Made by a program: the position numbers
Shown: piece after piece, positions 41,301 through 47,300 of the stretch
Layout of the letters: each line of letters begins with the position of its first letter
Position numbering within the stretch: position 1 is the stretch's first letter
Source of the DNA: Candidatus Eiseniibacteriota bacterium
GTDB lineage: Bacteria; Eisenbacteria; RBG-16-71-46; DASYSL01
Length of the DNA: 64,000 nucleotides
NCBI GenBank assembly: GCA_031431875.1
Contig: JANPEF010000082.1
Location: 16,994-80,993 of the forward strand
Reading direction: 5' to 3'

Positions 41301-44300
41301 CCGGCGGCAGGAGCCTGCTCACCGCGCAACGCATGGACGTCTGGTTCGACGCCGCGGACGACGGCATCGACAGCCTCTACGCCACCGGCGAGGCGGCGAA
41401 CGAGTTCACGGGGAAGCCGCTGCCCGATCGCCTCTCCGAGTCGAACCGGACGACCGGCGACCTGGTGCGTCTCTACTTCGACGGGAAGGACCTGCAGGAG
41501 GCGATCGTCACCGGCAAGGCCGCGGGCACGTATCGCGCCGAGCTCGCCGCCAGCGACACCGCCGGCGCCCGCGCGAACGCCGTGGAGTACGAGGCCGACC
41601 GCATCGTCTTCGAGGTGCCGAAGAACCGCATCCGCCTCGAGCAGAATGCGGTGCTGCGCTACGAGCAGATCGCGCTGCGCGCCCCTGAGGTCCTGTTCGA
41701 CGTCAAGCAGCAGGTGCTCGAGGCCCGCGGCAACCCGCAGCTCGAGGACCGCGGCGACACGTTGCGAGGCACGTCGCTGGCCTACGACCTGGAGACCCGG
41801 CGCGGGACGGTGTTCGGCGCGCGCACGCGCTACCAGACCGGGTGGTACGCCGGGGACAAGATCCGCCGTCTCGGCGACGACGTAATCGACGTGGGCGGCG
41901 CGCGCTACTCCACCTGCAACCTCGACGACCCGCACTACGCGTTCCGCTCGGACCGGATGAAGATCTACCTCAAGGACAAGATCATCGCCCGGCCGGTGCT
42001 GTTCACGCTCAAGCACGTCCCGTTGCTGGCGCTCCCCTTCTACGTGTTCCCCATCCGTCAGGAGCGTACGTCGGGCCTGCTCGTGCCGCAGATCCAGTTC
42101 GGCTTCGGCGACGCGACCGGTGGGTATATCCGCAACGCCGGGTACTACTTCGCGCCGAACGACTACACCGACTTCACGGTCTCGGGCGACTGGTATCCGC
42201 AGGTGCCCTCGTGGGTGCTGCGTGGCGAGGCGCGTTACAAGTCGCTGTACAAGTTCGAGGGCCAGATGCAGGGGTCGATCGGGCGCTCGTTCTACACCAC
42301 GGAGGAGCGGAATTGGGACTTCCGCGCCCAGCACGCGCAGACGATCAACGACGCCACGTCGCTCACCGCGCGGGCCAACTTCACCTCGAGTGCGGACTAC
42401 ACGCGCGATCCGCTCACCGGCCTGCCGCTGGCGAACCGCATCGACCGCTTCCTCACCTCGAACCTGACGCTGTCGCACCGCCGGCCCTGGGCGTCGATCA
42501 ACCTGGTGCTGTCCCGCCAGGAGGATCTCGACACGAATCCGATCAGCTCGCCGCTGCCCAAGCTGCAGGAGCAACTGCCGTCGCTGTCGATCGTGCTGCC
42601 GTCGCGCACCCTGGGCCACAAGCCGGGGGCCACCGGCGGCGCGGGCTTCCTGCCGTTCCTGTCGACCACGTACCTGGGCTTCAATGCGCGCTTCCTCAAC
42701 GACCGCACCGTCTCGACGTTCCTGCGCCGCGACGAGTCGGGCGCGATCGCGGTGTTCGATACGTCGGTCGCCCGCCGCGCCTACCAGCACGTGGTGACGC
42801 TGAACGACAATCGCCGCCTCGGCTTCGTCAACTTCGGACCGACGTTCCGCTGGACCGAGGTCGTCTACCAATACGATGCGACAGGCAAATCGCCGTCGGC
42901 CGGCGGCACGTGGGCGGCGGGGGCGGGCGCCTCGATGACGCTGTACGGCACCTCGCACGGCGGGCTCGGTCCGATCACCTCGATTCGCCACGTGTTCCAG
43001 CCGATCTTCTCGTACTCGTTCCAGCCCCAATTCAGCCGCTTGCGCGTGCAGGTGCCGACCAGCGACACGACGTTCGCCACCGTCGACCGCTTCCCGCCGT
43101 TCGGCGGCATCGGGCTTTCGGGCACGCGACAGAGCTTCCTGTCGGTCAACCTGGTGAACCGCTTCGAGGCCAAGGTGCGGACCGAGAAGGGCGAGCGCGT
43201 GCTGTCGAACCTGCTCGGGATCGGCATCAACACCGCCTACGACTTCCTGCACGAGGCCAACGGCCGGGAGACGCCATGGCAGCCGATTCTGACCACGGTG
43301 CGCGTCCAGCCACCGAACTACATCAGCGGCGACCTGTCCCTGCGCCATGATCCCGCGGTGGACAAGCTGCTGCGCAACGCTTCGGCTTCGCTGTCGTTGC
43401 GCTTCGCCGGCGGGGGGCGTCCACCGGCGGTCGCCGAGATCCCGCTGGCCGGGAACGAGGCGCAGACTCGCGGCCCGCGCGACCAACTCGTGCCGTGGAG
43501 CCTGTCGACCTCGATCAGTTACGGGGGCAGCCGGAACGTCCTCGAGAACTGGCAGCACAGCGAGTCGGCCAACCTCGTGGCCGAGATCCAGCCCACCGCC
43601 AACTGGACGGTGCACTACTACAACCAGATCGATCTCAACGAGCGGCGGATCGTGGCCCAGGAGTGGTCGGTCACGCGCACGCTCCATTGCTGGCAGGCGC
43701 AATTCGTGCGGCGGTTCTCGGGGGGAACGGCCGATTACTACTTCAAGATCGGGATCCTCGACCGCCCCGAGATCTTCCTCGACCGCGGCACCGCCGGGCT
43801 GGGGACGATCGGCGGCCTGGGCTCGCTGGGTGGGATCGGGTCCTCGCTGGTGCCCTGAGCCGACCGCCGAGGCCTCCCGTCCGCAAGTTGCAAAGCCTTG
43901 CCCGCGCGCCGCTTGGGGCGGGGGGTGCCGCTTGACCGGGGATTTCCCCGGCCCGTACACTCGATCCATTCGCCGTACCCGCCGGGGGGTCCCCCGGCTC
44001 ACAGGAGGAACTTCATGTCTGTTTCGACGCTGCGCTCGCGGGCGCTCCTGCTCGTGTTCGTGTCCCTCGTCGTCCTTGGCTGGACGGCGTCGGGCGCGCG
44101 CACGCAAGGGAAGCTGACGGGCAAGGTGCTTCCGGTCATCAGCACGTCTGATGTGATCGGTTACACCGCGCCCTGCGGCTGACACACGCCCAAGGGTGGG
44201 CTGGCCCGGCGGGCCAGTTTGATCGACAGCACGAGGATCAAGTTCGGCGATGCGGTCGTCGTCGACGCAGGCGACTGGGCTCCGGACTTCACCAAGCCCA

Positions 44301-47300
44301 ACGAGGCTCCCAAGCTCCAGTTCCTGCTCGAGATGGCGAACCTCATGAACTACGACGCCCTCGGTGTGGGCGAGCGGGAGCTTGCGTTCGGCCTGCCGAC
44401 GATCCTCGAGTTGGCCGCGAAGTCGAAGTCGCCGTTGATTTCGTCGAACCTGATCGACAAGAAGACGGGCAAGCCCGTGTTCAAGACGTCGGTCATCGTC
44501 AAGAAGGGCGGCATCAAGGTCGGCATCTTCGCGGTCCTCGGACCGAAGATCGATCTGCCGGGCAACTCCGGCGAGCTGGTCACGGTCGATGATCCGATCG
44601 CGACCGCGCAGGCCATGGTCGCCGAGTTGCGCAAGCAGGTCGACGTCATCGTCTGCCTCGCGCACCTGGGCCGCGTCGAAGGCGAGGATCTCGCCGCGCA
44701 GGTGCCGGGGATGGATGTCGTGATTCTCGCGCACCACCCGGGCTTCGTCGCCCAGGGCCGGCGCGTCAACGCGGCGATCACGGTCGCCAGCGGTGAGCAG
44801 GGCCAGAACGTCGGCTTCACGCAGGTGACGCTCGAAGGCAAGAAGGTGATGGACCTCACCTCGGAGACGAAGATCCTGATGCCCGAGATTGGCGACCGCG
44901 GCGACATCGCGCGGATGGTCAAGGAGTTCGACGACAAGCTGAACGAGGAACAGCGCAAGGCGCAGCAGACGCAGACGCTGCAGAACTCGTCGACGGCGCC
45001 CGGGTCGGATCAGTACCTGGGCAGCGAGAATTGCATGAGCTGCCACCCGGCGCAGTACGAGCAGTGGAAGACGACGCAGCACGCGCACGCCTTCGCCACG
45101 CTCGAGCGGACGCAGAAGGATGCGACGCCCGAGTGCGTCCAGTGCCACGTGGTCGGCTTTGGCCGGCCGGGCGGGTACGAGAACGCGTCGAAGTCGGCGA
45201 AGCTCAAGAACGTCGGTTGCGAGTCGTGCCATGGCTACGGCACGCAGCACGACATGTTCGCGAAGACCGGCGGCAAGGTGGCCGAAGCCGTCTGCCTGAC
45301 CTGCCACACCCCGGCGAACGACGCGGGCTGGAACTACGCGGCGAAGTTGCCGCGCGTCTCGCACTAGGCGGCGGCGGGGGGCCGGGAGCGGCCCAGGGAA
45401 GGTAGCGTGCGACGCGGGCGCGGTGGTACCCTTGGCGGGTACCGCGCGCCCGCGCGGCGTTACGCCGCGGGACCCGCCTCCCCCGACTCCCTCACGCCGG
45501 AAGCGCACATGCCCCTGCAGCCCGATGGAATGACCTATTTCGAGGACATCATCCAGTCGGTCGGCAACACGCCGCTCGTCCGCCTGAACAAGATGACCAA
45601 GGGCCTCCAGGCCACCGTCCTCGCCAAGGTCGAATCGTTCAATCCCGGCGGCAGCTCGAAGGACCGGATCGGTCTCTCCATGATCCGCGCCGCCGAGGCC
45701 GACGGGAAGCTCAAGCCCGGCGGCACGATCGTCGAGTGCACCTCGGGGAACACGGGCGTCGGCCTGGCCATGGCGGCGGTCGTGCTGGGCTACAAGACCG
45801 TGTTCTGCATGCCGGACAAGGTGGCGACCGAGAAGATCAACCTCCTCAAGGCCTACGGCGCCGAGGTGGTCGTCTGCCCCACCGCAGTCTCGCCCGACTC
45901 GCCCGAGTCGTACTACCAGGTCGCTCGCCGCATCGAACGCGAGCGGCCGAATGCGTTCCTCACCAACCAGTACGACAATCCGGCGAACCCGGCGGCGCAC
46001 TACCGGACGACGGGCCCCGAACTGTGGGAGCAGACCGCGGGCAAGATCGACGTGTTCGTCACCTCGATCGGCACCGGTGGCACGATCAGCGGCACCGCGA
46101 AGTACCTGAAGGAGAAGAACCCGAAGGTCCGCATCGTCGGCGCCGACCCGATCGGCTCGATCCTCCACCAGTGGTTCCACACCCGCACCATGGGCGAGGC
46201 GCACACGTACAAGGTCGAGGGCATCGGCGAGGACTTCCTGCCCGAGGCCTACGACTGGAGCGTGATCGACGACGTCGTGCAGGTGAACGACAAGGACTCG
46301 CTGAACACGGCGCGCCGCCTCGCCCGCGAGGAGGGCATCCTGGTCGGCGGCTCGTGCGGCACCGCGCTGCACGCCGGGCTGCTCGAGGCGAAGAAGATGA
46401 AGCAGGGCGGCGTGATCGTCGTCATGCTGCCCGACACCGGCGAGCGCTACCTGTCGAAGGTGCACAGCGACGAGTGGATGCGCGACAACCACATGCTCGA
46501 TCCGGCCGAGACGCGTGTCGCCGACCTCGTCTTCGGCAAGTCGGCCGGCGGGAAGGCACTGCTGTCGGTCGCGCCGGGCGACCTCGTGCGGAAGGCGCTC
46601 GACCTCGTCCGCGCCTACGACGTGTCGCAGCTCCCGGTCCTCGAGGGCGAGGCTTCCGTCGGCACCGTGTACGACGCGGAGATCATGAAGCGCGTGCTCG
46701 ACGACCCGACGGTACTCGGCCGCACGGTGCGCGAGATCATGGACCCGCCGCTGCCGGTGATCGGCGCGCAGGAACCAGTGACGCGCGTGGCGCAACTCCT
46801 CAAGCAGAAGCACGCGGCGGTGCTCGTCTCCGCCAACGGGGGAGGACCCAGCGGAATCCTCACCCGTCTCGATGTCATCTCGCTGATCGCGGAGTGAGCA
46901 TGGTGCGCATCGACGCGAAATCCGGCCTCGGCACCCGCGCGATCCACGCGGGCAACGCCCCCGACCCGCGCACGGGCGCGGTCGCGGTGCCGGTGTACCA
47001 GACCTCGACCTACGCGCAGGACGGATTCGGCAAGCACAAGGGCTACGAATACGCGCGCTCGCAGAACCCCACGCGCGAGGCGCTCGAGGAGAACCTGGCG
47101 TCGCTCGAGAGCGGCGCGCACGGCTTCGCCTTCGCCTCGGGCCTCGCCGCGACGACGACCCTGCTGCACCTGCTCAAGGCCGGGGACCACGTCGTGGCCT
47201 CGAACAACATGTATGGGGGCACGTTCCGCCTGTTCGACCAGGTGTTCGCCCACCTCGGCATGCGCTTCTCCTACGTGAACACGGCCGACCTGGCCGCGGT

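Follow-up and report, generated by a model that had tools for sequence, protein, structure and literature searches.

UshA-like selenoproteins are an established group: PMC2398784 (Zhang and Gladyshev 2008) catalogues the family as 'COG0737, UshA-like, CxU', PMC9312934 also lists an UshA-like family, and PMC13188914 includes NCBIfam NF041198, "UshA-like (seleno)protein" (UshA_like_PCGU), among catalogued selenoproteins. NF041198-type proteins are numerous (at an E cut-off of 1e-30, 4150 representative clusters match), and our literature search found no published function for NF041198 or the UshA-like selenoprotein and no paper linking Eisenbacteria with selenocysteine (Sec). A multihaem selenoprotein has been described in MccSep (ExtKL), a five-haem polysulfide-reducing selenoenzyme of Geobacter with five conserved CxxCH motifs, a haem cap at its N-terminus and an Ig-like stem at its C-terminus (PMC13510729).

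Here we characterize a gene at 44015–45367 on the forward strand of a 64,000-nucleotide stretch of Candidatus Eisenbacteria DNA (the window), which encodes an UshA-like PCGU tetrahaem (seleno)protein. It had been called as two genes, the first (g01669) covering 44015–44182, with 55 codons plus TGA, and the second (g01670) being a TTG-started ORF of 382 aa at 44219–45367. The two calls form a single frame, as the survey's finding had proposed: direct reading gives 450 codons including Sec56, from an ATG at 44015 to a TAG stop at 45365–45367, with a sole in-frame TGA at 44180–44182 (codon 56) and a conserved frame on both sides. The TGA lies in the motif P-C-G-U-H-T-P-K-G-G (read-through context ...YTAPCGUHTPKGGLARRA...), and the 450-residue read-through product carries four CxxCH motifs downstream of Sec, namely CMSCH, CVQCH, CESCH and CLTCH. 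A Shine-Dalgarno sequence, AGGAGG, can be read directly at 44003–44008 (forward strand), with the ATG 6 nt further on, and the consensus match TTGACC-18-TACACT at 43932–43961 (forward strand), between the lptD stop and the selenoprotein gene, is a candidate sigma-70-like promoter (1 site against 0.1 expected in shuffles). By eye, residues 1–28 (MSVSTLRSRALLLVFVSLVVLGWTASGA; 44015–44098, forward strand) are a predicted Sec-type signal peptide, and the N-termini of relatives in alignment A1 are of like character. The proposed architecture stands: a signal peptide, a degenerate 5'-nucleotidase-like domain with the C-G-U motif, and a c554-like tetrahaem domain. Public annotation breaks this gene at the UGA, and the resulting 380-residue calls are missing both signal peptide and active site; because the calls are cut there, the UshA-like PCGU family is under-annotated in Eisenbacteria.

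Several lines of evidence indicate that the TGA at 44180–44182 is very probably a selenocysteine codon. In alignment A3, comprising 15 full-length database relatives at 36–65% identity, P53-C54-G55-C56 is invariant in 15/15, so Cys occupies the TGA column, as had been claimed from fewer sequences. A six-frame search of the order found matches in 101/101 genomes, and about 90 of these have exactly one in-frame TGA (1 partial, 1 with an extra TAG); the near-universality suggested earlier therefore holds, in counts that overstate the support since the genomes are related and not independent. The same single TGA column is kept across the order down to 34% identity, and second copies in these genomes have no in-frame stop, the paralogues carrying Cys. 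This genome also has the complete Sec machinery that the survey had listed, with a tRNA-Sec at C56:20177-20274 and SelB (334.6 bits), SelA (527.4 bits) and SelD (373.7 bits) all above curated cut-offs, so that SelB could deliver Sec-tRNA(Sec) at codon 56.

If the TGA instead truly ended translation, marked a pseudogene or came from a sequencing error, the two calls would be separate or dead genes, which would fit the splitting of the gene by standard gene callers. Such a reading would have to accommodate an identical TGA column in so many genomes at such divergence, paralogues with Cys at that position, and a frame conserved on either side; it would also cut the haem protein off from its signal peptide. 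The folding energy of the downstream hairpin in this one genome, considered by itself, is not significant and would also suit a dead gene, whereas the restriction of that hairpin to Sec forms would not. We consider such a defect extremely improbable and reject the pseudogene and sequencing-error readings on the order-wide conservation of the TGA and the Sec-form-specific hairpin.

This SECIS-like hairpin, CUGGCCC-GGC-GGGCCAG with 7 bp, lies at 44201–44217 on the forward strand and starts 18 nt after the UGA, filling a gap in the survey's finding, in which no SECIS element had been modelled; covariation and the comparison of Sec with Cys forms support it. In this genome, two G-U pairs lengthen it to 44199–44219. 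Of 27 distinct Sec forms, 26 retain all 7 pairs (the loop is GGC in 26 and GGA in 1), against 0/17 Cys forms, though several of the latter encode the same GLARRAS peptide. Compensatory changes occur (G-C to C-G in 11/32 sequences, C-G to G-C in 3/32), and the covariation score was reached by 0/500 shuffles, with slid controls scoring much lower. Taken alone, the hairpin of this genome is no stabler than shuffled sequence (z -1.19; 27/200 fold equally well). Rfam searches around the UGA (E up to 10) and over the whole window (gathering scores) matched no family, SECIS or other. In general, a bSECIS hairpin has a G among the first two loop nucleotides, and the loop lies 16–37 nt from the UGA; here a GGC loop begins 25 nt after the UGA, on a 7-bp stem with compensatory changes. 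Hairpin covariation, its specificity for Sec forms, the Sec machinery and the same TGA across the order together make Sec the best reading of this codon, in line with the survey.

The survey had also presented the protein as a new selenoprotein and as a second, new family of multihaem selenoproteins, and neither description survives comparison with known profiles. The protein scores 290 bits against NF041198 (cut-off 275, E 3.1e-86; the summed six-frame score is 282.7 bits), a margin of only 15 bits, and it carries the defining motif as P53-C54-G55-U56. This match places the locus in an already catalogued selenoprotein family, listed since 2008, and not in a new kind. The profile already covers the nucleotidase-like and haem halves, matching at positions 24–271 and 357–518 of 519 with positions 272–356 unmatched. 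From the sequence evidence, we hold with high confidence that this is a genuine Sec-containing member of NF041198. Locus and family share the P-C-G-U/C motif, an N-terminal UshA-like and a C-terminal haem region, and coexisting Sec and Cys forms; the protein here falls about 70 residues short of the 519 profile positions, and relative to the family at large it differs in its host, Candidatus Eisenbacteria, and in conserved cystathionine beta-synthase (CBS) and gamma-lyase neighbours seen only in this lineage. Sec forms of the f2 family from the same order score under the cut-off (L040, 254.7 bits). What is new is the membership of Eisenbacteria, the gene order from selenoprotein to CBS to gamma-lyase, the loss of most phosphoesterase metal ligands, and DsbA-like fusions in distant relatives; for so large a family, the neighbourhood, the fusions and the ligand loss offer concrete substrates to try.

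Could the protein belong to MccSep, or be distantly homologous to it, and act in the same way? Both are exported multihaem c-type cytochromes with one Sec; each has relatives of the Cys type, each message has a SECIS-like hairpin shortly after the UGA, and a sulfur substrate is plausible for either (PMC13510729). The MccSep profile NF040886, however, gives 12.6 bits against a cut-off of 250, which amounts to no sequence relationship. The protein has four CxxCH motifs instead of five, all of them C-terminal, and its non-haem portion is a phosphoesterase fold at the N-terminus, in contrast to the C-terminal Ig-like stem of MccSep (PMC13510729). The Sec of MccSep sits in the haem cap with a Cys-ligated haem; here it is found not in the haem domain but in a distinct domain with the phosphoesterase fold. 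The 46 matched PDB sequences, from a PDB copy that may predate those entries, include no 9WT* chain; this genome has no ExtKL match, and one supplement file of PMC13510729 mentions neither 'Eisenbacteria' nor 'nucleotidase'. We reject membership in MccSep on score, haem number and fold; even a distant relation, kept open as a caveat in the survey, is very unlikely.

The NF041198 protein has, at about residues 36–325 (44120–44989, forward strand), a 5'-nucleotidase/CpdB-type metallophosphoesterase fold with degenerate metal motifs. An alignment profile searched against PDB sequences retrieved 5'-nucleotidases (3jyf, 3e-29; 2z1a, 4e-29), the best Foldseek matches of this part were likewise 5'-nucleotidases (E about 1e-21), and its AlphaFold model has pLDDT >90. 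The classical dimetal ligand motifs are D-x-H, G-D, G-N-H-E, H and G-H. In A1, D46 is the only invariant residue among the classical ligand positions: motif I reads D46-V-I, motif III is GERE, GDRD or SEKE, most rows have Gln for the His of motif IV, and motifs IV and V are variable, so that, by A1 and by alignment to 3jyf and 2z1a, the dimetal ligand set of an active 5'-nucleotidase or UshA is mostly lost. D84 varies little in A1 and not at all in A3. No C-terminal 5_nucleotid_C domain (PF02872) matched at E up to 1. Compared with E. coli UshA, the T. thermophilus 5'-nucleotidase, CpdB and SoxB, the protein shares the N-terminal fold, the GG-x-AR and xDxGD motifs and the periplasmic location, but its dimetal ligands are mostly gone, the 5_nucleotid_C domain is missing, Cys-Gly-Sec is inserted after motif I, and the fold is joined to a tetrahaem domain. 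That the protein still functions as a periplasmic nucleotidase or SoxB-type thiosulfohydrolase, with a cytochrome domain as a mere addition, is highly improbable: the sequence and fold resemble 5'-nucleotidases and, more weakly, SoxB (74.3 bits with TIGR04486; 3e-13 in the PDB profile search), yet neither the SoxB cut-off of 550 nor the UshA cut-off of 600 is approached, the metal-ligand motifs are degenerate family-wide, and the C-terminal substrate-binding domain is lacking.

The C-terminal cytochrome c554-like tetrahaem domain (44990–45364, forward strand) matches PF13435 at 8.2e-18 (65.6 bits against a gathering score of 20.8) and 1bvb at 1.6e-13, the latter reaching 1.9e-22 with the alignment profile against PDB. 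Its CxxCH sites, at 45032–45046, 45134–45148, 45218–45232 and 45293–45307 (forward strand), show almost no variation in A1 and none in A3, and haem c maturation genes are present in this genome. As in Nitrosomonas europaea cytochrome c554 (1bvb), which also matches PF13435, the first three CxxCH motifs and their surroundings align (c554 residues 5–98); here, in contrast, the domain is about 125 residues long and fused to another domain. Identity with c554 itself was rejected, as the equivalog NF043010 gives only 55.9 bits against a cut-off of 400. Because AlphaFold models the haem domain at low confidence (pLDDT 40–60), no model geometry ties the Cys/Sec pair to a haem.

Taken as a whole, the locus is probably best explained as an exported NF041198 selenoprotein in which a Cys/Sec redox pair would be wired to haems. 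The candidate pair, Cys54-Gly55-Sec56 (TGC GGC TGA; 44174–44182, forward strand), occupies invariant columns in A1 and A3 on a loop after the first metal motif, followed by a His57 that is nearly invariant in A1. In the periplasm, Cys54 and Sec56 would alternate between selenolate/thiolate and selenenylsulfide and trade electrons with the four-haem wire, which would make the protein a redox enzyme rather than a phosphoesterase, perhaps with a sulfur compound such as a thiol/disulfide, polysulfide or sulfide as its substrate. We propose such a sulfur or thiol mechanism only tentatively, and the sulfur or selenium substrate suggested in the survey is likewise conjectural. By analogy, Erv2-type sulfhydryl oxidases use a Cys-Gly-Cys shuttle with an FAD cofactor; the C-G-C/U tripeptide could similarly be a mobile redox pair feeding a bound cofactor, although the Erv2 fold is unrelated, its cofactor is FAD and not haem, and it has no Sec. 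Haem-less PCGU proteins exist, and the PCGU motif therefore needs no fused haem wire.

The same residues might instead hold metal. Where the dimetal centre has been lost, Cys54, Sec56, His57 and retained Asp residues could bind a single ion, giving a haem-fed metalloenzyme and not a selenenylsulfide enzyme. The descent of the domain from a metalloenzyme fold, the conservation of D46 and D84 described above, and a nearly invariant His beside Sec, recalling the adjacent Sec-His pair of formate dehydrogenase H, speak for this arrangement. We nevertheless judge it unlikely: several haem-less PCGU proteins have Cys or Asn instead of D46, some alignment rows have Ser instead of His57, the remaining ligand positions vary freely, and fusions to DsbA-like domains suggest thiol chemistry.

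For the preferred Cys/Sec chemistry, sequence context offers hints of redox function. Among 18 long relatives scanned, 5 have DsbA-like thioredoxin-fold domains fused to the PCGU unit, and a DsbA-like gene adjoins the PCGU gene in L148. Downstream of the selenoprotein gene lie a CBS-type gene (PALP and CBS domains; 45509–46897, forward strand) and a cystathionine gamma-lyase/synthase family gene (Cys_Met_Meta_PP; 46900–48093, forward strand, start codon not fixed), and this order, the third hint, is kept at 18 of 20 relatives' loci, extending the adjacency noted in the survey. On 16 contigs whose PCGU genes are more distant, this linkage was absent, and the gene order may for this reason be a lineage-specific trait without functional meaning. 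No PF01323 or PF13462 match was found in this genome, so a DsbA-family partner is unavailable here and a role as DsbA re-oxidase is weakened; among the 56 genomes of the lineage at least 90% complete, DsbB was found in none and VKOR in only 7. Against this background, a bolder proposal, which we consider unlikely, is that the near-universal Cys-Gly-Sec tetrahaem protein catalyses thiol oxidation (or disulfide/polysulfide reduction) in the periplasm of this lineage and has a functional link to its consistently adjacent CBS and gamma-lyase genes, whose products form cysteine/H2S. Were it true, electrons would pass between sulfur compounds and the respiratory chain via haem, not quinone.

A scan for related loci with a degenerate DNA pattern matched at least 127 stretches, from which 80 loci were retrieved; chance matches without an open frame occurred in Streptomyces, Undibacterium and others (L077, L079, L086, L097, L104, L120, L121, L126 and L145).

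Read-through of the window at 44015-45367 on the forward strand bears out the survey's finding that a split gene is a single reading frame: it comprises 450 codons, interrupted by a lone in-frame TGA at 44180-44182. On the same strand, a Shine-Dalgarno sequence (AGGAGG) can be read directly 6 nt 5' of the ATG, and a sigma-70-like site at 43932-43961 is a candidate promoter by sequence match. The N terminus of the read-through product resembles a signal peptide, and the protein contains the motif YTAPCGUHTPKGGLARRA as well as four CxxCH sites. A mechanical ORF list gives a TTG-started downstream piece of 382 residues (44219-45367), and public protein collections contain this same piece, as database protein P0002 and in many calls of about 380 aa.

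We found a match to this gene in 101 of 101 genomes of the order-level lineage, about 90 of them (a count of the listed rows) with a single in-frame TGA, although these genomes are related and the counts are therefore not independent. Additional copies in genomes of the order have no in-frame TGA, and in 15 full-length database relatives the TGA column is Cys inside an invariant P-C-G-C. A SECIS-like hairpin (CUGGCCC-GGC-GGGCCAG; 44201-44217, forward strand) lies 18 nt 3' of the UGA. Using Sec and Cys sequences taken from related loci, we found all seven pairs in 26 of 27 distinct Sec forms (six in the remaining one), with a GGC loop in 26 and GGA in one, and in 0 of 17 Cys forms (range 2-6 pairs). 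Several of these Cys forms nevertheless encode the GLARRAS peptide, using different codons. In a 32-sequence alignment, compensatory changes turned one G-C pair into C-G in 11 sequences and, at a second pair, C-G into G-C in 3; the covariation score was matched by 0 of 500 shuffles, and sliding the partner strand lowered pairing from 91% to at most 55%. Taken singly, the hairpin of the genome under study (G000) is not significantly stable in its GC-rich context (z -1.19), and Rfam returned no family matching the hairpin near the UGA. One unpublished genome, G002 (loci L009 and L049), is represented by a single row in each of two alignments of relatives (A1 and A2), and likewise in the counts of hairpins and of synteny; none of our conclusions rests solely on it. 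G000, which is 98.45% complete, carries tRNA-Sec, the proteins SelB, SelA, and SelD, all three scoring above their cut-offs, and haem c maturation genes. As far as computation shows, the Cys column, the Sec-specific covarying hairpin, and the Sec machinery strongly support the survey's reading of this UGA as a Sec codon. At least one more gene elsewhere in the genome contains an in-frame TGA: the frame at G000:C135:1355-2626, for a formate dehydrogenase-like molybdopterin oxidoreductase, has one such codon and probably encodes a further selenoprotein.

The family itself is not new, contrary to the survey's claim: the read-through protein scores 290 bits, a small margin above the curated cut-off of 275, on the NCBIfam model NF041198.1 (UshA_like_PCGU, "UshA-like (seleno)protein"), and the family was catalogued earlier. 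A six-frame search matched NF041198 in two stretches, positions 24-271 covering the nucleotidase-like half and 357-518 the haem half. The profile spans both halves, so the fusion put forward as a new architecture is already part of the curated model. Entries in two reviews read "UshA-like protein, NF041198, CxU" (PMC13188914) and "COG0737 (UshA), CxU" (PMC9312934), and a 2008 ocean-metagenome survey lists it among 51 families that had been described before (PMC2398784), counting 76 sequences with Sec and 92 with Cys. The names that relatives carry assign the lineage to Candidatus Eisenbacteria. On NF041198, the score is 254.7 bits for Sec forms belonging to another family of the order, and 218 and 171 bits for four-haem PCGU (P-C-G-Sec) proteins from two further contigs. 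A relationship to the multihaem selenoprotein MccSep was excluded at the family level.

Searching the PDB with a profile of 27 relatives returned CpdB and 5'-nucleotidase structures (3e-29 and 4e-29), cytochrome c554 (1.9e-22), whose residues 5-98 align with the haem domain, and, weakly, SoxB (3e-13). The AlphaFold model is confident over residues ~40-310 and poor in the haem part, and Foldseek returned 5'-nucleotidases. Residues D46, C54, G55, U/C56, K60, G61, G62, and R65 are invariant in the alignment. The classical phosphoesterase ligand positions are not invariant: D-x-H becomes D-V-I or D-V-K, the G-N-H-E position reads G-E-R-E, G-D-R-D, or S-E-K-E, and most rows have Gln in place of the motif IV His. 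No 5_nucleotid_C domain was found in the read-through protein. Its Cys-Gly-Sec sits in the loop after motif I, aligned with the loop that precedes the conserved GG-x-AR of true nucleotidases.

The gene is preceded by lptD and followed by genes for a PALP+CBS-domain cystathionine beta-synthase, a gamma-lyase-type enzyme (Cys_Met_Meta_PP), a DUF520 protein, and a DUF4097 protein. The order selenoprotein, beta-synthase, gamma-lyase on one strand recurs in 18 of 20 relatives' loci from three families of the order; of the exceptions, one locus stops at a contig edge and the other, L060, has neither enzyme gene. Among the matches listed from a pattern scan, the same block occurs on many more records, in an overlapping species set. 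On 16 listed contigs whose PCGU genes are more distant (haem-less in 14, four-haem in 2), the available flanks contained neither enzyme gene. Just 3' of the selenoprotein stop lies a long, GC-rich perfect hairpin (45405-45465) that has no T tract and no match in Rfam; the intergenic region in its entirety has a folding energy of -92 kcal/mol (z -2.35). Around 45371-45383, close relatives whose flanks are 93-97% identical (L007:2857-3940, L110, and L074) have an additional ~1.08 kb. This extra DNA, located between the selenoprotein and beta-synthase genes, encodes a Cys paralogue of ~330 aa that is haem-less and has the motif PCGCHTPKGG; its absence from G000 looks like a clean deletion.

Among 18 long relatives scanned, a DsbA-like thioredoxin-fold domain is fused to the unit in 5 and DUF1573 Ig-like domains occur in 4. 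Haem-less PCGU genes have a DsbA-like neighbour at L148 and a DUF362/4Fe-4S neighbour at L143, L122, and L075. DsbB is absent from all 56 genomes of the order with completeness of at least 90%, VKOR is present in 7 of them, and G000 has no DsbA-family match despite its outer membrane (lptD, TonB receptor). These observations fit a thiol/selenol redox role and indicate no particular substrate. We infer a mechanism in which a Cys/Sec selenenylsulfide couple would be wired to the four haems and might act on a sulfur compound.

The haem-less PCGU proteins are lipoprotein-like, ~300-350 aa long, and carry PCGUH-x-KKGG with an in-frame TGA, frequently as tandem Sec-containing pairs; among the matches listed, pairs occur at L085, L094, L100, L116, L122, L130, and L133, and singles at L075, L076, L080, L132, L143, L146, and L148. 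For ten of them (from L075, L076, L085, L130, L143, L146, and L148), NF041198 scores lie at just 85-175 bits (cut-off 275) and NF049981 scores below 60 bits (cut-off 140), so by these profile scores they may be a PCGU subfamily that neither model captures. Five contigs titled Saccharimonadaceae, Terriglobales, Verrucomicrobiia, Methylomirabilota, and Acidiferrales (L078, L098, L099, L115, and L119) carry an Eisenbacteria-type PCGU gene at 34-41% identity, with beta-synthase and gamma-lyase genes also in L078, L115, and L119 and a DUF4097 gene also in L078 and L119; these contigs look mis-binned. The fused distant relatives P0204, P0127, P0139, and P0226 show the motif variants C-E-C, C-D-C, C-G-C, and Y-G-Y, the last in P0204, which has no Cys pair. 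Their DsbA-like domain has a D-C-P-Y-G motif, or Q-C-I-H-C in P0139, and P0127 and P0139 each contain two UshA-like domains.
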